Of a stretch of DNA of 46,940 bases, positions 1-46,940 are shown piece after piece. The notes under the pieces were generated by a model. The model saw nothing but the letters and a program-made list of their open reading frames with translations, was not told the DNA's origin and made no database searches. Location: the NCBI RefSeq assembly GCF_004010195.1, contig NC_057718.1, positions 70,074,428 to 70,121,367 of the forward strand. The letters run 5' to 3'. The first letter of the stretch is position 1; each line of letters begins with the position of its first letter. The translations under genes were made by a program, and so were the position numbers. This DNA comes from Chiloscyllium plagiosum (lineage: Eukaryota).

Positions 1-748
1 CCATCCATCCGATACCGACCACCCGACCATCCATCCGATACCGACCACCCGACCATCCATCCGATACCGACCACCCACCTGATACCGACCACCCACCCAC
101 CCATCCGATACCGACCACCCATCCAATACCATCCATGCATCCGATACCGATCACCCATCCATGCATCCGATACCGATCACCCATCCATGCATCCGATACC
201 GATCACCCATCCATGCATCCGATACCGATCACCCATCCATGCATCCGATACCGATCACCCATCCATGCATCCGATACCGATCACCCATCCATGCATCCGA
301 TACCGATCACCCATCCATGCATCCGATACCGATCACCCATCCATGCATCCGATACCGATCACCCATCCATGCATCCGATACCGATCACCCATCCATGCAT
401 CCGATACCGATCACCCATCCATGCATCCGATACCGATCACCCATCCATGCATCCGATACCGATCACCCATCCATGCATCCGATACCGATCACCCATCCAT
501 GCATCCGATACCGATCACCCATCCATGCATCCGATACCGATCACCCATCCATGCATCCGATACCGATCACCCATCCATGCATCCGATACCGATCACCCAT
601 CCATGCATCCGATACCGATCACCCATCCATGCATCCGATACCGACCACCCGACCACGCATCCACCCATCCACCCAATACCGACCACCCATCCACCCAATA
701 CCGACCACCCATCCACCCAATACCGACCACCCATCCAATACCGACCAC
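1..748. repeat. Minisatellite, 26-bp unit CCATCCATGCATCCGATACCGATCAC, with variant 26/22/18-bp units at the edges
   Basis: ATG recurs every 26 bp from 135 to 629 (about 20 near-identical units, 129-648). Three 22-bp units CCATCCACCCAATACCGACCAC at 665-730 and an 18-bp unit at 731-748. The array runs off the left edge. Confidence 0.98.
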
Positions 749-962
749 TGTAGCGGGCAGCTGGAACTGACAACTGGAAGCGGCAGATTTAAACCACTAC
801 AAATGCCGGAGGAAAAATCACAGAAGCGCTTCACAGGAGGTTTCCAAGCACTGAGGATGTCACCTAGACAGGGGACGAAACGTCTGCAACATAAATTCCC
901 TGCTCGGCAAACAGAACCACAACAACGAGCACCCGAGCTACAAATCTTCACACAGACTTTTA
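735..962 (+). mobile_element. Penelope-like element 3' end / pseudo-LTR remnant (family A)
   Basis: Contains a complete minimal HHR core at 851-884. The start (CCAATACCGACCACTG, reading YRPL) resembles the end of PLE GIY-YIG ORFs as I recall them. Confidence 0.75.
848..887 (+). ncRNA. Minimal type I hammerhead ribozyme motif
   Basis: GCA-CUGAGGA-U-[GUC A CCU agac AGG G GAC]-GAAA-C-GUC-UGC: both conserved core boxes, stem II, loop-less palindromic stem III (ACGU), GUC cleavage triplet and 3-bp stem I. Confidence 0.8.
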
Positions 963-1112
963 ACAAGTTCAGCCAGCTATGCATGCAATGTATACTGTCA
1001 TTATTACATTTGAATAGATTGAATTCAACATTAACAATGTTGACATCTGTTGATTATGGAGAAGAGCAGGACAATTTTTCTTGAACTAACATGAGTTGTG
1101 CTTCATGCTCAC

Positions 1113-1146
1113 CAGAGGGCAGTCTTCAATATACAATACTGCAGAA
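1113..1146 (-). other. Candidate 34-nt micro-exon; overlaps a CTCF-like motif at 1109-1122
   Basis: Minus strand reads ttttctgtgctgtttcag|TTCTGCAG...CCCTCTG|gtgagc, with two open frames (SAVLYIEDCPL or LQYCILKTAL). Confidence 0.3.
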
Positions 1147-1339
1147 CTGAAACAGCACAGAAAATGCTTTGGCTTTAAATTATAGCATCCACCTCTGTCA
1201 CTTTGCCATCCAATGTGTTCCTATTTCTGGAAAATCATTCAATTTCTCAAGCCTTATAAAAATTCAGTTTAATATAAAACACTGAATCATGTATATTTTG
1301 CAACTGTATATTACTTAATATAGCAAAACATCCCAAGTT

Positions 1340-1470
1340 CAGTTCTGAAGAAGGGTCACTAGATCCAAAACTTTAACTCTGCTTTCTTTCCACATATGTT
1401 GTGAGGTCTACTGAGTTTCTCCAGCAATTTCTATTTTTGTTTCTGATTTCCAGCATTGGTAGTTATTTGG
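1340..1470 (+). mobile_element. PLE terminal-repeat remnant (family B) with degenerate HHR
   Basis: CTGAAGA-AGGGTC-acta-GATCC-AAAAC at 1345-1371; downstream sequence is homologous to the minus-strand copy at 33197-33308. Confidence 0.65.
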
Positions 1471-4560: not shown

Positions 4561-5765
4561 TACAGTGTAGTAAAGGCTCTTTGGCCCATTGAGTCTGCAT
4601 CAACATAATTACCATGAAAAATAATTTACTAATCCTAATTTCTTTCACTTATCCAGTATCACTGCATGTTATGATTAGATTAGATTAGATTAGATTACTT
4701 ACAGTGTGGAAACAGGCCCTTCGGCCCAACAAGTCCACACCGACCCGCCGAAGCGTAACCCACCCATACCCCTACATTTACCCCTTTACCTAACACTACG
4801 GGCAATTTAGCATGGCCAATGATATTTGGAGTGCTCATCCAAATATTTTTTAAAGCTACTTTCTCAGGTGGTGCATTCCAGATTCCCAAACCCACTGAGT
4901 TTATTTTCCCAAATGCCCTTTGAATTCCTTGCCCCTTACCCTAAATTATGCTCTCTATTCACTTGTTCATACCCCTTTCTAATCTTATACATCTCAATCA
5001 TGTCCCCTCTCAGTCTTCTCTGTTGTAAAGAATACAATCCAAGCCTATCTATCCTGTGTGCACATCTCTATTTCCCCACCTTGAGCAACATCCTGGTGAA
5101 CCTCCTTTGTACCCCCTCCAGTGCTATCACATCCTTCCTGTAGTGAGGTGACCAGAACCCCACACGGCAGTCCAACTGTGGCCTGACCAATGCTCTGTAA
5201 AACTACAACAGTATCTCCTTGATGTTCCACTCTGTGTCACAACTGATGAAAGCAAGTGTCCCTTATGCATTCTTAACTATGCTATTCATGTGCTCTGTCG
5301 ACTTCAGGGATCTGAGAATTATTACCCCAAGATACCTCTGTTCCTCTAAGCTACCAAGTGCCCTGCTATTCATTAAATACTTCCTCATCTTGTTTCTTCT
5401 TTCAAAGTACATCACCTCACACTTTTCAGGGTTAAATCCCATCGGCCACTGGTTTGCCCATCTGACCAACCCATCTATATCTTCCTGTAATCTACAAATA
5501 TTTTCTTCACTATAAGCAAATTTGCTTAAAATTCCCCCAACATTTTCATTTATATCATTTATGTATATAGCAAACAATAAGGGTCCCAATACTGATCCTT
5601 GTAGAACACTGCTGGACACTGGCCTCCAATCACTCAAACAGTCTTCTACCATGATCCTTTGTCTCCTATTACTAAGCCAGTTTCTGATCCACCTCACCAG
5701 GTTTTCCTCTGTTCCATGTGCTGTAACCTTCTCAGTCTCCCATTTAGGACCTTATCAAAAGCTTT
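4560..5765 (-). mobile_element. CR1 LINE 3' portion (RT pseudogene), interrupted by an HE1 tail
   Basis: ORF 5263-5697: WIRNWLSNRRQR, QGSVLGPLLFAIYIND, FNPEKCEV. Confidence 0.92.
4673..4820 (-). mobile_element. HE1 SINE, 5'-truncated
   Basis: (TAGAT)n tail followed by CAGTGTGGAAACAGGCCCTTCGGCCCAACAAGTCCACACCG; near-identical to the other copies here. Confidence 0.92.
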
Positions 5766-11119: not shown

Positions 11120-12812
11120 TAGAACATAGAATATTATAGAACATTACAGAGTAGTACAGGCCCTTCGGCCCTCAATGTTGCGCCTACCTGTGAAACCAAT
11201 CTGAAGCCCATCTAACCTACATTATTCCATTATCATCCATATGTCTATACAACAATAATTTACAAACTTTGGCACCTTACACATGGCCCCCAACTCCAGA
11301 TCAAGTTTATAAATAGGAAATAATTGAGGTCCGATCCCTGAGGCACACCACTAGTCACTGATTTCCAACCATTTATCCCCACTCTTTGCTTCCTGTTGGT
11401 CAACCAATCTACTAGCTATGCTAACACTCAAAATGTAGTGTCATGCATCATTATCTTATGCAGCAGCCTCTTGTGCGGCACCTTGTCAAAGGCATTTTGG
11501 AAACCTAGGTACACCACATCCAATGGGTCCTTGTTGTCCACCTTGCTCATAATATCTTCATAGAATTCCAAAATATTTTTTAAGCATGACCTGCCCTTCA
11601 TGAATCCATGCTGCGTCTGCCCAATGGGACAATTTCTATCGAGATGCCCTATTTCTTCCTTGATAATAGACTCAAAAAGATCTTGGTCAAGACCCCAGCA
11701 ATGTCCTGTTGAGTCTCTCGATAAGCTGGAGTAGATGCCCATCAGGCCCTGGAGACATATCACCTTAATGCTCTTCAAGAGATCCAAAATCTCCTCTTTC
11801 TTGATCTCAAAATGCCCAAGCATATTAGCACAGCCCACAAAAGTCGCACTATCCTCCATATCTTTATCCTGGATGAATACTCATTTAAGGTCTCACCCAC
11901 ATCCTTTGCCTCCAAGCACAAGTTGTCTCCTTTATGCTTGAGTGGTTTTACCTTCTCCCTAGTTATCCTCTAGTTTTTAACATATTTATAGAATGCCTTG
12001 GGATTCCTTTAACCGTACTTGTCAAGGTCAATTCATGGCACCTTCTTGCTCTCCTACTTCCCTGCTTGAGTACTTTCCGGCTTTTCTTTATATTTCTCAT
12101 GGGTTCTGTCTGATTTTAATTTCCTAAACTTTACATATTCTCCTTTTGACTAAATTCAATGTCTGTTATTATCCAAGAATGCCTTACCTTACCATCCTTG
12201 TCCTTCCTCCTTATTGGAACATGCCAGTCTGAACTCATCAGCAGGTCATTAAGCAACTCCCACATGTCAAATATGGAGTTTCCTGATAACAGCTCCTCCC
12301 AATGTTGAGATTATTTGCTTTCCCCAGTTTAGTACTTTGCCACAAGGTCCTGACTTATCCTTATTCATAGTTATCTTAAAACTTAAGGAGTTGTGATCAC
12401 TGTTTCCAAAATATTCTTCCACTGAAAGGTCAGTCACTTGGCCAGACTCATTAGCCAATAAAAGGTCCAGTATGGCCCCTCCTCTATTTGGACTATCCAC
12501 ACACTATTTCAAGAAACCCATCTTGGATGCACTACCAAATTATGCACCAGGTAAGCCTCTTGTTCCAAGGGAGTCCCAGTCAATATTGGGGAAGTTAAAG
12601 TCACCCATTATGATAACTTTGTGTTTTTATTGCTACCTTCCATAATTTGCTCCATATTTGTTCCTTGATCTCTAGTTGTCTGTTGGAGAATCTATAGTAT
12701 AATCCTATCAGAATGATTGCATTCATTTTATGTTTGAGCTCAACCCATATTGCCTCAGTAGATGAGCCCTCCAGTAATACCTCTCCAAATGCAAATGTAC
12801 CATCCTCCTTGA
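11120..12812 (-). mobile_element. Composite of deleted CR1 fragments (tail, RT, endonuclease)
   Basis: QHGFMKGRSCL, DVVYLGFQNAFDKVPH (ORF 11428-11859); AILDLLL, GNSDHN (ORF 12267-12500). Confidence 0.9.
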
Positions 12813-17493: not shown

Positions 17494-17648
17494 GAGGAGA
17501 AAGTGAGGTCTGCAGATGCTGGAGATCAAAGTTGAAACTTTATTGCTGGAACAGCACAGCAGGTCAGACAGCATCCAGGGAACAGGAGATTCGACGTTTC
17601 CCTGGATGCTGCCTGACCTGCTGTGCTGTTCCAGCAATAAAGTTTCAA
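17494..17648. mobile_element. Fold-back PLE remnant (family C variant) with 15-bp flanking direct repeat
   Basis: Arms 17532-17582 and 17598-17648 (one mismatch) with a 15-nt loop. TCAATGAATTTAATG at 17480-17494 and 17645-17659. Same left end as 2628. Confidence 0.88.
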
Positions 17649-26829: not shown

Positions 26830-29620
26830 TAATGCAAATATCCATAGCTAAGCTCAACTTCAATGGCAGTAGAAATGCTTAATGCAGATTTCTCGTGTCT
26901 CTGGGTTCAGGAGTATGTTGTGAGCCTTCTGTAAGAATCCCATATATTTTTGAGGAGACAAAGTCACGTGGCTCCAGGAGTGACAGGGAAGGGTGTCATC
27001 TGACCTCCAATTCTGGCAGGGTGGCTACCTTGTTGGCACCTTTTTTCAATCTGAGATCTTAAGGTCCCAGGTGTGCCAGTGGTTCCCTTTGTGAACATCT
27101 TGGACGGAACCTAGCAGATGTACTTCTTTTGAAGAAGGCTCTATCAATGTGGGTGAACACATTCTTCTTGGGGGAGATTTCAATTGCGCCCTCCAGGGGA
27201 GGGACCGTGCAGTACCCAGAGGAGCTCAGCATTGATGGGGATGTTGAGAGACTTGGTTAACACCTTTTGACTTGGTAGACATCTGGTGAAATCTCCATTC
27301 CAATGCCATTACTTTTGTGAGGCCTGGGGTTGGAGTGTCCAGAATTGACCACCTGTACTTTTCCAGGGCATACTGCTCTTGTGTTCCGAAGCCCTCAACA
27401 CAACAGGTGCTGTTCTCTGATCACAGTCTGATGTGGGGAGAGCTTGTTCCATTCAATGCCAGGATGAGGTTGGTGTACTAGCACTTCTAACAACCTGCTG
27501 CTACAGGATGAACAGTTCCACTACTCACTTCATCACTTCTGGACCAGCTGGAGAAGGAAACAGGTCTTCCCTTCCTTCAGGCTATGGTGGGACATGGGCA
27601 AAGCTCACATCTGCATCTTCTGTCGGTACGAGTGTCGACAAAGCAGTAGAAACCTAGAATCAGGTTGAAGGACGTGCTTGACCTGGAGTCACATCTTGGT
27701 CAGCCTGATGTGGACTTAGCCCTGCAGTGCGTATATGAAAACAAAAAGGTCACACTTCGTGACCTGCAGCTGGTCAGGTCATGGAGTTCACTAGCAGTTC
27801 CTTGTGCTGCTACGGACGACAGATCTCTCACTTTGAATCAAGAGGGCATTGAGACCCAAGTGTAGGATCCTTCGAATGGGGAAGCTTTTTGTGGGAGGAT
27901 CTACCATAGGTCAGCCCAAAGTGTGTCGAGAGGCTCGACTCTCTTGAATCTGGCAGAGCTGACCGACACCTTTTTTGACTGACTTTCCAGGGGCAAATTC
28001 TCAGGACCGCACAGGCTAACTGTGTAGTCCCCTAGGATGTCCTGGGAAGTCTCGGTGGGAGGGGAGCCAATTATGTGCACATTCAGGAAGAATGTATTGT
28101 GACTGGAGCAATGTGTCTTTTTTGGTGCAGGGCAGTTTTCACTCTATTGTCCAAGAAGGTGGATCTCCATTTGTTTTAAAGAATTGGGGTCTATCTCCGC
28201 CCTCAGCACAGACTTCAAAACCTTCACTGGGACACTTTGAACTCCCCTCGGTACCATGCTGACTACACGGTCAACCCAGACCAGCTCTTTGTCCAGTTCA
28301 GAGCATCCATGACAACATTCTCCTGGTCCGGGGAATAAATCATTATTCCCAGAGGCTGACCTGTCAAGCACCTTTCCCCGATTCAAAAAAAGACAGTCGA
28401 CAGAGTGGATCATGAATATTTGTTCAGGATGCTACAGACTTTTGGGTTTGGGACTCACTTTGTTGCCTGGCTGAATGATGCAGACACAGGTGACTGCAAG
28501 GGCCTAAATCCACTTCTGGTTTGTGATCCAAGGCATCCAGAGCCAAATGGACAATGCAATCAGCCCCAACACCTCCCATGCGCTCAAGGTGGTTAGGTAC
28601 TGGACGAACTGACCTCTGTTTGTCTGGAACTCGACATCATCCCTGTGTCACAGGCCCTCTCACATGGCGCAGTGCCCTACAATCTGAGCAGTCTCAGGAA
28701 TATCATCCCTGTGCCCTTTTCTTTTTGGATGGCACAAAGGCACTATCTGTGTGGGCTGATGTTGCACTCTCTCCACTGCTGTGCCTTCACCTAGCACCCG
28801 GACACACCTTGGGGTGGCGCTTTTGCCCTCCAGCAGTGGAAGTCCGCAATGGAGGGTCCCCTACAAAACGGTTGTCCCCTCTCTTACATTGGGGATATAG
28901 GTTGGAGACTGCTCAATGTGTCTATCCCATACAACCAGTGACGAGGAAGATGTACTAGATGGCAGACCATGCATATTCTGTGCAGCATCCACAATCCCAG
29001 CGAGTACAGCTCAGCTACAATCAAAGTGGGTTCAGCTCATCCACAGTCCCAGTTTCATACAGGCATAGAGACATACAGCATGGAAACAGACCCTTCGGTC
29101 CAAGACAGTATTCCATATTTGTGTTGAGTGTGTCCAGTTACTTAGCTGTTTTTTTTTGAGGAGACTGTTCTTAAAATTCTGGTTGCACTTCAGTTCTACA
29201 CTCCAGTTCTACACTCCAGGGAGAAGCGGACAAGGCTGAGTCATCTTATGGCTTTGCTCCTGGCATAGTTCCAGACATAGCTGAGGAGGGGCTTGTTGTT
29301 TCTGACTGTCTGCCCCTATTTCACGGTTACATCCATGCTCTTGTGTTCCTGCTCAAGAGACATAATGCTGCTCTCCAATATGATGGAGATCTCATTTGAT
29401 TTTAGTTTGGTGCCCCAGGAAGAGTGCTGACTTTTTTTTTCTTGTTGTTGTATTGACTATGGACCCCTTGAAAGAGCCAAAGGGTCTTTTTATTTTAACT
29501 CTGTCTTGTCCCTGTCCCAGAAGTGTTTGATGGGGTCAATGTAATTTTCATTTGCAATGGGTAGAGGAGCCTTTTCCTCTGACTTTTTAGAACTTTTACT
29601 TTTCTGTTGTAAGAGTAGAG
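26830..29620 (+). mobile_element. Tx1-clade (L1-group) LINE ORF2 relic
   Basis: APE motifs IAKLNFNG, ILLGGDFNCAL, DLVDIW, VSRIDHLYFS, FSDHSL; WWDMGKAHI; RT motif DRVDHEYLFRMLQTFGFGTHFVAW. Many stops and deletions. Confidence 0.85.
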
Positions 29621-34937: not shown

Positions 34938-34982
34938 CCCCTCCCCTCCGCCGCACACCCATGCACCCTAATCTATTCCCCC

Positions 34983-35019
<37 letters not shown>

Positions 35020-35065
35020 NCCCCCCCTCCCCACCCCCCCCCCCCCCACCTGACACAACCCCCCA
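34938..35065. repeat. Poly-C tract containing an ambiguous base (N at 35020)
   Basis: Near-pure C run at 34978-35050. Confidence 0.95.
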
Positions 35066-44064: not shown

Positions 44065-46270
44065 ACTTATCTCTGGCATCTCTCTGAAACTTGTCTCTAA
44101 TCGGCTTAAAATTATTCTCCCTTGGGATTGCCATTTCCACCCTGGGAGAAGGTCTCTGGCTATCCATTTTATCTATACCTCTCTTCATCTTGTACACCTC
44201 TATCAAGTCACTTCTAATCCTTCTTCACTCCAGTGAGAAAAGCCCTAGCTCCCTCAACCTTTCTTCATTAGACATGCCCTCCAGTCCAGGTAACATCCTG
44301 GTAAATCTCCTCTGCATCCTCTCTAATGCTTCCACTTCTTTCCTATAATGATGCAACCAGAACTGAACACAATATTCAAGTGTGGTCCAATCAGAGATTT
44401 ACAGAGTTGCAGCATAACCTCTTGGTGCTTAAGCACAATCCCCCACCAATGAAAGCCAAAACACCATACACCTTCTCCACCCTAAGAACTTGGGTGGCAA
44501 CTTTGAGGGATCTATGGATATAGACCCCAAGATCCATCTGTCCCTCCACAATGCGAAGAAACCTGCATTGAACCCTGTAATCTTCATTCAAATTTGACTT
44601 TCCAAAAGAAATCACTTCACACTTTTCCAGTTTGAACTCCATTTCCACTTCTCAGCCCAGGTCTGCATCCTGTCAATGTCCCATTGCAATCTACAGCAGC
44701 CCTCTACACTATTCACAATTCCACCAACCTTCAGGACAGTGGCAAACTTATTAACCCGCCCTTCCACTTCCTCATCCAAGTCATTTATAAAAATCACAAA
44801 GAGCAGAGGTCCCAGAACAGATCCCTACGGAACACCATTGGTCACCGAGCTCCAGGCTGAATACTTTCCATTTACCATCACCCTCTGTCTTCTATGGGCC
44901 AGCCAATTCTATATCCAAACAGATTTCCCTGTATCCCATGCCTCCTTACTTTCTGAATGAGCCTATCATGGGGAACCTTATCAAATGCCTTGTTAAAATC
45001 CACAGACACTACATCCACTGCTCTCCCTTCATCAAGGTGTTTTATCACATCCTCAAAGAATTCAATTAGGCTTCTTAGGCATGACCTGCCTCTTACAAAG
45101 CCATGCTGACTATCTCTAAGCAAGCTATGCTTTTCCAAATAATAATAAATCCTGTCTCTTGGAATCCTCTCCTCACCATCGACTTAAACCTGACTGGTCT
45201 GCAATTCCCAGAGTTATCCCTATTCCCTTTCTTGAACAAAGGAATAACATTTGCCACCCTCCAATCATCTGGTACTACTCATGTGGACAATGAGGATGCA
45301 AAGATCATCACCAAAGACGAAGCAATCTCTTCCCTTGCTTCCTGTAGAAACTTATATCCCATCTGGCCCAGGGGGGCTTATCTTTCCTTGTGTTTTTCAA
45401 AATTTCCAGCATATCTCCCTTCTTAACAGCAACCTGTTCAAGCATATCAGCCTGTTTCATGCTGTCCTCACAAATGAAAATGTCTTTCTCACTAGTGAAT
45501 ACTGAAGCAAAATATTCATTAAGGACATCCTCAAGCTCCTCTGACTCCAGGCACACATTCGCTTCACTATGCCTGATTGGCCCTACTCTCACACTGGCCA
45601 TCGCTTTGTTCCTCATATCAGTGTAGATTGCCTTGGGACTTTCCTTAGTCCTACCTGTCAAGGCTTTTTCATGTTCCCTTCTAGCCCTCTCAAGTCCATT
45701 CTTCAGTTCCTTCCTGATCACCTTGTAACCTTCTACAGCCCTGCCTGATCCTTGCTTCCTCAACCATTAAGTAAGCTTCCTTCTTCCTTTTGGCTAGATG
45801 TTCTACATCTCTTATCATCCAAGGTTCTTTCACACTAGCATCTCTTCCTTGCCTCAGTGGGACAAGTGCTCCCTAAAAAACCTCTACATTTTGTCATGCG
45901 TTTCCCTGAAAATATCTTTCCTAATTTATGCTCCACAGTTCCTGCCTAATAGCATTGTAATTCTGCCTCTCTCAATTAAATACTTTCCTATACTGTCTGC
46001 TCCCATCCCTCTCCATGATTACAGGAAAGGGGAGGGAGTTGTGAACACTATCACTGAAATGGTCTGACACTTGACCTGATTTGTTGCCAAGCACCAAATT
46101 CCTGAAGAAGGGCTCATGCCCAAAACGTCGATTCTCCTGCTCCTTGGATGCTGCCTGACCTGCTGCGCTTTTCCAGCAACACATTTTAAGCCTATCTACA
46201 TACTGAGTCAGGAATCCTTCCTGGTCACACTTGACAAAATCAGCTCCTTCCAAATTAGTTACACTAAGGC
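44065..46270 (-). mobile_element. CR1 ORF2 relic (late endonuclease through RT)
   Basis: SQHGFVRGRSCL, VDFNKAFDKVPHDRL, FVKCDQEGFLTQYVDR. Confidence 0.93.
46098..46190 (+). mobile_element. PLE terminal-repeat remnant (family C), single arm
   Basis: Nearly identical to 2757-2850; the HHR GAAA box is mutated to AAAA (CpG decay). Confidence 0.88.
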
Positions 46271-46289
46271 ATGACTTAAACCATAAGGC

Positions 46290-46940
46290 ATGAAGAAGCA
46301 GGCAGTGCAGGGTTCCCCTGTGGTCGTTCCCCTAAAAAATAAGTATACAGCTTTGGAAACTGTTGGGGGGGACAGCGTTGCAGGTGTAAGCTGCAGTGAA
46401 GGGGTCTGTGGCTCTGAGACTCAGAAGGGAAAGGGGGAGAGGAGGAGAGCGCTAGTTATAGGGGACTCTCTAGTTAGAGGGACGGACAGGCGGTTCTATG
46501 GACATGGGCGAGACTCACGGATGGTTTGTTGCCTCCCGGGTGCTAGGGTCCGAGACGTCTCAGACCGTGTATTCAGAATCCTTAAGGGGGAGGGTGTGCA
46601 GCCAGAAGTCGTGGTACACATTGGCACCAACGACATAGGTAGGAAGAGGGATGGGGAGGTCATTCAAGAGCTCAAGGAGTTAGGCAGGAAGCTAAAAGCT
46701 AGGACAGACAGAGTCGTCAACTCTGGGTTGTTGCCGGTGCCACGTGACAGTGAGGCAAAAAATAGGGAGAGAGTGCAGTTGAACACGTGGCTGCAAGGCT
46801 GATGTAGGAGGGAGGGCTTCAGATATTTGGACAATTGGACTGCACTCTGGGGAAGGTGGGACCTGTACAAACAGGACGGGCTGCACCTGAACCAGAAGGG
46901 CACCAATATCCTGGGGGGTAGGTTTGCTAGCACTCTTCGG
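46290..46940 (+). pseudogene. Young CR1 ORF1, SGNH/GDSL esterase domain, one premature stop; runs off the right edge
   Basis: VIGDSLVR (46461), LPGAR, HIGTND; TGA at 46800-46802; the same frame continues CRREGF..DGLHLN (46875-46886). Confidence 0.92.

Follow-up and report, generated by a model that had tools for sequence, protein, structure and literature searches.

A hybrid minisatellite probably seeded at the 5′ breakpoint of a Poseidon-type Penelope-like element and amplified after insertion

The stretch of DNA analyzed here (the window, 46,940 nt) opens with a tandem array that runs into a 5′-truncated Penelope-like element (PLE), and the array is probably a single-locus hybrid minisatellite that was seeded by the element and amplified by host DNA turnover after insertion. 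A preliminary description of this DNA had proposed instead that the element's reverse transcriptase (RT) wrote the array by telomerase-like re-priming on a short template, and had named slippage after insertion as an alternative. The features on which the argument draws are collected in Table 1.

Table 1. Positions of the array, the element fragment and the right flank in the window
Feature	Positions	Strand	Remarks
Mixed left part of the array	1..143	+	Units of 26, 26, 18, 26, 18 and 18 bp; core mostly ATACCGACCAC
Central block	144..637	+	19 identical 26-bp units, TA CCGA TCAC CCAT CCAT GCAT CCGA in 4-mer register
Junction-proximal units	638..737	+	38, 22, 22 and 18 bp; CCAA before TA as in the element; most element-like
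Seed core, ATACCGACCAC, at the element's 5′ breakpoint	738..748	+	Last base of an I codon, Y-R-P, first base of L
5′-truncated, high-copy Penelope/Poseidon-type element	738..960	+	Comprises the end of the ORF, a hammerhead-bearing pseudo-LTR, the start of the ORF and the tail
Decayed end of the RT-GIY-YIG ORF, coding for the C-terminal tail	739..867	+	YRPL...STEDVT; two in-frame stops
Minimal type-I hammerhead motif	848..887	+	CUGAGGA at 851, extra U, GAAA at 877; activity predicted
Likely ORF start	857..960	+	ATG where hammerhead stem II starts; 35 codons open to the element end
Tail between two family 3′ ends, 926 and 960	927..960	+	34 bp
Single-copy right flank	961..1368	.	Represented by orthologous contigs in organisms A, B and C

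The minisatellite described at the start of the window is indeed there, occupying positions 1–748 of the + strand as 30 units that each start with ATACC and reaching past the left window edge. TRF resolved it into a period of 26 (25.4 copies, 1–662) and a period of 22 (3.8 copies, 672–748). Its strand is strongly C-rich, as had been noted (C 340, A 207, T 123, G 78; n = 748; 45% C and 10% G). The motif ATACCGAYCAC, previously said to be kept by every unit, opens 29 of the 30, the exception being the unit at 126, and has no copy outside the array on either strand of the window. From left to right the units measure 26, 26, 18, 26, 18 and 18 bp, then 19 × 26 bp, then 38, 22, 22 and 18 bp, followed by a final core. 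A grading in size from 26 through 22 to 18 bp thus holds near the junction and is not one-way along the array, with further units of 18 bp at 64, 108 and 126 and one of 38 bp at 638. Identical 26-mers fill the center, with older-looking mixed units on both sides, and this central block is young or recently homogenized. The two 22-mers of the junction-proximal part are also identical to each other. At the right end the final core passes directly into the non-repetitive TGTAGCGGGC of the hammerhead-bearing element, in agreement with the preliminary description. Elsewhere in the window, an unrelated repeat with a 26-bp period lies at 28989–29052 (2.5 copies, 71% matches).

When the array is cut at each punctuating TA, the length of every segment (31 of 31) is a multiple of 4 nt, and the segments are built from seven tetramers: CCGA (56), CCAT (52), GCAT (21), TCAC (19), CCAC (18), CCAA (5) and CTGA (1). 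Such CC-rich 4-mers punctuated by TA are a slippage signature. Compared with a junction unit, the central 26-mer has three substitutions and two extra 4-mers; these changes must have arisen in single units before copying. The 19 identical units could be partly a product of assembly or polishing, but the 4-nt register and the nested-variant argument are independent of the copy number of the central block.

Copies of the neighboring element were surveyed in reads or contigs of 4 of the 24 listed sequencing runs (three DNA, one RNA), aligned to 700–1900 at 80% likeness. Summed depth is ~1e6 over 741–945, vs. 5–42 over 987–1314. The coding tail is 71% identical to residues 422–463 of P0004 (E = 7e-12), and 730–864, read through the two stops, shares 82% identity with the C-terminal end of a predicted Chiloscyllium punctatum protein. 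With the ORF tail as query, 36 candidates yielded eight proteins, each assigned by name to a carpet shark (Chiloscyllium, Hemiscyllium, Stegostoma). A search of representative proteins gave four matches, three of them already known; the fourth, P0011 (a ryegrass F-box protein), was rejected as spurious. The window itself covers only the last 42 codons of the element ORF, and the RT and GIY-YIG domains are seen in homologues: P0004, P0009 and P0010 carry MGSP, YVDD and then V[VI]YKIPCxxCxKHY[IV]GQTGR in one frame, that is, an RT followed by a C-terminal GIY-YIG. Pfam matches on the homologues (RVT_1, E = 3e-6 to 7e-3; GIY-YIG, E = 0.003–0.03) all lie below the curated cut-offs. A CX2-5CxxC finger within the linker that joins RT to endonuclease (EN) marks Neptune and Nematis (Craig et al., 2021, PMC8557442); it is absent from all four homologues scored, which have 0–1 Cys in 73 residues. 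Judged from these sequence features, the fragment at 738–960 reads as the 5′-truncated end of a Poseidon-type PLE, which bears out its earlier identification as a Penelope-like element with a hammerhead. No second copy of the family was found within the window by blastn or tblastn.

The predicted hammerhead would have a stem II at 859–876 (six of seven pairs), a palindromic ACGU, a GUC triplet ending at 884 and a stem I of 3 bp. An extra base between 9 and 10.1, a G10.1–C11.1 pair and a long stem II match the minimal type, for which a stem I of 4–5 bp is typical (PMC4209133). Rfam gave no match of any kind at the gathering threshold and no hammerhead at E up to 10, the free-folding z was 0.08, and exact patterns of the hammerhead region had no matches in viral, prokaryote or metagenome contigs. 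The likely start codon lies 28 nt ahead of the predicted cut site. Family loose ends in run X21 fall behind 926 (44 reads) and behind 960 (75 reads), delimiting the tail. In the Poseidon element PAc of the anole, the ATG is likewise at stem II, the cut is at 26 nt and the tail measures 30–40 bp (Frangieh et al., 2024, PMC11167929). More broadly, Penelope/Poseidon EN+ elements share with the present family an RT followed by a C-terminal GIY-YIG, a linker without Zn-finger, a hammerhead in the pseudo-LTR and strong 5′ truncation (PMC11167929; PMC8557442). In those elements the 5′ neighbor is a tandem or inverted copy, whereas here it is a minisatellite.

Several observations concern the family rather than this copy. 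Among the runs listed, no RNA run covers the locus; in the RNA run, of which 2% was read, all reads belong to the family, with 5 of 829 at least 99% alike and a depth of zero in 987–1314, a result uninformative about expression. Over 741–986, family reads of the single-cell poly(A) run X21, which do not come from this locus, are strand-biased ~7:1 with the first mate on minus, a bias that, provided the second mate corresponds to the RNA strand, would fit transcription of the family in sense orientation. Before 794, extra bases appear in the loose ends of 18 contigs of run X2, and these match a subfamily whose ORF tail is longer (RQRQATIN in P0004, P0005 and P0007). Two Chiloscyllium punctatum predicted isoforms, P0003 (NT5DC1) and P0008 (MAP3K7), end in ~100–170 residues of the element's GIY-YIG region, and these tails are possibly exonized intronic copies or gene-prediction artifacts.

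Where the element begins is central to the origin of the array. The preliminary description had it start at 749, but the breakpoint lies at 738, or at 735 should CCAA-TA-TA have lost one TA (2 nt). In each of the three DNA runs, family contigs align back to exactly 738 with loose letters before it (90, 109 and 81 contigs). The loose-end consensus upstream of 738 in run X2 is AATCAATAAGCACATCGACCTGGACCCAAT, with near-identical consensuses in the other two, and it encodes H-I-D-L-D-P-I, joining the window's A-TAC-CGA-CCA-CTG (Y-R-P-L). Homologous proteins read DPIYRPL in 6 of 10 cases and [DE]PIY in all 10. These comparisons support the earlier claim that the core belongs to the element, as the I/Y-R-P-L stretch after the GIY-YIG domain, and with it a seeding of the array at the 5′ junction. 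The element's opening bases, CCAA-TA-CCGA-CCAC, share their 4-mer register with the array, and the element-derived share of a unit amounts to 11–14 of its 18–26 bases.

Depending on the family letter at position 744, the core matches the family at 11 of 11 bases or at 10 of 11. There is a hint of the latter, with a family codon at the R position that is perhaps CGG, because W and Q stand there in 3 of the 10 homologues; a search of shorter proteins for further homologues gave no matches. For a fixed junction, the probability of the match arising by chance from the array composition is 2e-6 (11/11) or 6e-5 (10/11). If the junction could be chosen freely, on the assumption of a 3-kb element and 22 phases, the expected number of sites is 0.016 (11/11) or 0.54 (at least 10/11). 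The second figure keeps a chance long microhomology as a minor rival: a compound CCAY satellite with a TA-CCGA module would have come first, and the element cDNA would have paired with it by its 3′ end over a chance match of unusual length. For R2 junctions 11 bp of annealing is enough (PMC11331408), and the W and Q homologues would favor the more permissive figure. If the match is 11/11, however, a gapped extension by 3–5 more bases lowers the expected 0.016 sites further, the units nearest the junction are the most element-like, and the core has no further copy in 46 kb. In addition, summed depth in the bin 700–740 is ~300-fold or more under that of the element in all three DNA runs, though this is a weak bound, as short repeats assemble poorly. 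Taken with these points, a pre-existing satellite is distinctly unlikely.

The bases outside the core are harder to derive from the element. Besides the core, units carry 7, 11, 15 or 27 bases, and no more than 5 of these (gapped) agree with the template. For 7–15 bases of every common unit the adjacent template offers no match. Compared with the family's upstream sequence, the bases before each core match at 2–6 of up to 15 positions ungapped, and at a maximum of 9 of 15 with a 2-nt gap. Junction-proximal units reach 5–7 contiguous gapped matches (2-nt gap) vs. 2 for the 26-mers; the left-end unit at 126 also reaches 5. Element-likeness thus drops with distance from the junction. None of the six spacer words tested was found in 749–960 or in the 30 bases upstream in the family. 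Another part of the ORF, reached by a template jump, was rejected as the source of the spacers within the 563 residues of P0012, whose back-translation matched them no better than 40 shuffles (10 vs. 8–13 nt; 9 vs. 8–11 nt).

The right flank allows the insertion to be dated against relatives. A second individual of organism A (X2 record 12) has no differences over 931–1368. Over the same interval the organism C contig (X13 record 6, depth 30.8) has 16 differences and 3 gaps in 439 nt, or about 3.7%. This contig starts 30 nt inside the element tail, and 14 of its 16 differences are listed at 972–1301, so that no more than 2 of the 30 tail bases can differ. The organism B contig (X9 record 18) spans 956–1368 with 14 differences and overlaps only the last 5 element bases. 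Since the tail of the element stands at the same site in organism C, the insertion is common to species ~3.7% diverged and hence old. No empty allele was seen at the locus in the three DNA runs. At 8 listed positions within 738–960, and also at 961, this copy departs from the letter of the family majority. Taking 7e-10 mutations per base and generation as the shark rate (PMC10587355), one arrives at face value at an age of many millions of generations for the insertion. Over 494 nt, units of insertion age should have gathered ~9 differences at 1.8% per lineage, and none is seen (P = 1.1e-4); at 4.0% the same zero-difference test of the central block gives P = 1.5e-9. This test covers the 19 central units, the four short junction units being outside its reach. 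Nineteen identical units beside an old insertion therefore imply that the central block grew or was homogenized well after the element had inserted, unless assembly produced part of it.

These observations bear directly on the re-priming proposal. In telomerase repeat addition, each repeat is copied from one short RNA template window. By analogy, the PLE RT would have re-primed repeatedly on a short RNA stretch during insertion, writing the array with a G-rich cDNA strand. The core is the template sequence where cDNA synthesis ended, CCA flanks it on both sides (735–737 and 745–747) as a possible realignment site, and PLE RTs and telomerase RT have a common ancestry (PMC8557442; PMC3846280). 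EN-minus PLEs at telomeres (PMC3846280; PMC8557442) resemble the present case in their G-rich cDNA strand and in the position of the repeats, next to a PLE truncated at its 5′ end, but the family here has an endonuclease and the units are not copies of one template window. Such copying predicts that each unit is one contiguous stretch of template, whereas the units observed are not, and they change in length by multiples of 4 nt. Moreover, the nested substitutions of the 19 central units are missing from the junction copy, and these units are much younger than the old insertion, or were homogenized since. The accessible part of the only in vitro PLE study describes no repeat addition (PMC11167929). 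A reading as telomeric repeat was rejected as well, TTAGGG being absent from the array (0 copies). Telomerase-like copying as the source of the array is scarcely credible, and for the array as a whole it is essentially excluded; as the origin of a seed of two or three units it is possible but unneeded.

A narrower proposal confines synthesis at insertion to the junction. The first few units (638–748) would have been made by iterative templated synthesis at the 5′ junction, through polymerase theta alternative end-joining or through template jumps and non-templated additions of the element RT, and host slippage would then have expanded them. The four junction units are short, imperfect, element-like and right at the breakpoint. 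Polymerase theta leaves multiple imperfect flank copies by iterative synthesis of 3–8 nt (PMC2895639), 5′ junctions of R2 include extra-nucleotide, snap-back and extra-template classes (PMC11331408), and template jumps have been proposed for Penelope (PMC3846280). Conversely, the strict 4-nt register of the segments is explained more simply by slippage, the two 22-mers are identical despite the age of the insertion, and there is no direct sign that dates the junction units to it. We therefore regard synthesis of these units at insertion as rather unlikely, although copying at that time is a possible source of the first duplication. A specific form, in which two to four junction units (638–748) were written by the PLE RT after it stalled at CCAAT, the cDNA 3′ end being realigned to the CCA of CCAC and the same 10–14 template bases recopied with slips, is highly improbable. 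If true, the units would be a relic of repeat addition of the telomerase type, left by a PLE that carries an endonuclease, and such seeds would recur at the family's 5′ junctions as a source of new minisatellites.

Slippage after insertion, offered earlier as an alternative, fits the 4-nt register and the age contrast best, and seeding by the element followed by host amplification can be set out in four steps. A Poseidon-type PLE inserted, was reverse-transcribed from 960 and was truncated ~223 nt upstream, within the P-I-Y-R-P-L codons. Its 5′ end would then have been placed against CCAY (CCAT/CCAC) 4-mers, most simply those of a short host microsatellite, joined via 3–5 nt of microhomology (CCA or ACCCA) with the loss of one TA. 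Thereafter, slippage between the element's CCAC (745–748) and upstream CCAY, which would be enabled because the element's opening bases lie in the 4-mer register, may have duplicated the junction module into 18- and 22-bp units. Further 4-nt slips and point changes in single units (CCAA to CCGA, CCAC to TCAC, CCAT to GCAT) preceded the multiplication or homogenization of one 26-bp variant to 19 copies, probably by slippage or unequal exchange, long after insertion. Some features of this scheme have precedents. In one EN+ PLE the 5′ junction arose through microhomology (PMC3846280), and some PLE clades favor microsatellites, though those clades and motifs differ from the present case (PMC8557442). 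The scheme is weakened because a Poseidon element prefers AT-rich DNA in vitro, not CCAY (PMC11167929).

Minisatellites derived from transposable elements (TEs) are not new. Alu-derived minisatellites have reportedly been described by Jurka and Gentles, and Haber and Louis are said to have proposed seeding by direct repeats. Direct-repeat seeding is an established but minor route; TEs are the source of 23% of human mini/satellites, with flanking direct repeats as the route in some of them, while known models account for only 6% of human TE-derived repeats, and repeat initiation has been suggested to be tied to retrotransposition (Ahmed and Liang, 2012, PMC3389668). As in those cases, the unit here shares the sequence of the adjacent element beyond fixed-junction chance, local duplication probably proceeded over time, and short direct repeats would have served as slip points; it differs in that the unit straddles a 5′ truncation point and that the donor is a PLE, and the element-derived share of its units places the array below the criteria of that study (70% similarity or one-period overlap) (PMC3389668). 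Non-LTR retrozymes also form vertebrate tandem arrays from PLE terminal sequence, but with units of 51–972 bp that each carry a hammerhead, in contrast to units of 18–38 bp without one here (Li et al., 2026, 10.64898/2026.07.22.740005). A retrozyme array was accordingly rejected: the sole match in the window to the hammerhead motif pattern used lies at 851, outside the array. A survey of titles and abstract openings, in which most subscription papers were outside coverage, found no account of EN+ PLEs adding repeats, nor of a minisatellite located where the 5′ end of a PLE joins its target.

The remainder of the window holds further repeats. A second high-copy short repeat at 1339–1456 (summed depth 1e5–1e6; ends at 1339 and 1453–1456) has many opposite-strand joints at 1343/1411, opens with a degenerate hammerhead-like CTGAAGA, and is likely another Penelope-type stub. 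Another short repeat, hammerhead-like at its center, was revealed by self-blast in copies that are palindromic or incomplete at 2628–2854, 17494–17647 and 46097–46191, and Rfam at E up to 10 gave sub-threshold hairpin matches near 2700–2820. A 70-bp near-pure poly-C tract at 34978–35047 contains the window's only N (35020) and is a possible assembly weak spot. No host gene was found in the window, and 3 of the 14 frames scanned gave domain matches: RVT_1 fragments at 5266–5751 (−; E = 8e-12) and 11431–11880 (−; E = 6.4e-5), and a GDSL/SGNH esterase-like frame at 46287–46940 (+; PF13472, E = 8.9e-7, below cut-off), which we take to be ORF1 of a CR1-type LINE.

The array behaves as a transposon-seeded minisatellite, which is a known kind, and it implies no function. 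A single locus is insufficient to demonstrate a new enzyme activity; if breakpoint-derived repeats recurred at many junctions of the family, they would point to repeat addition in the retroelement group closest to telomerase. The initiation of minisatellites is in general poorly explained (PMC3389668). This locus offers a clean worked example of the birth of one, with seed, intermediate units and amplified variant in order along 750 bases, in which the seed is a retroelement breakpoint that happens to read in a 4-mer register and whose insertion can be dated against relatives.
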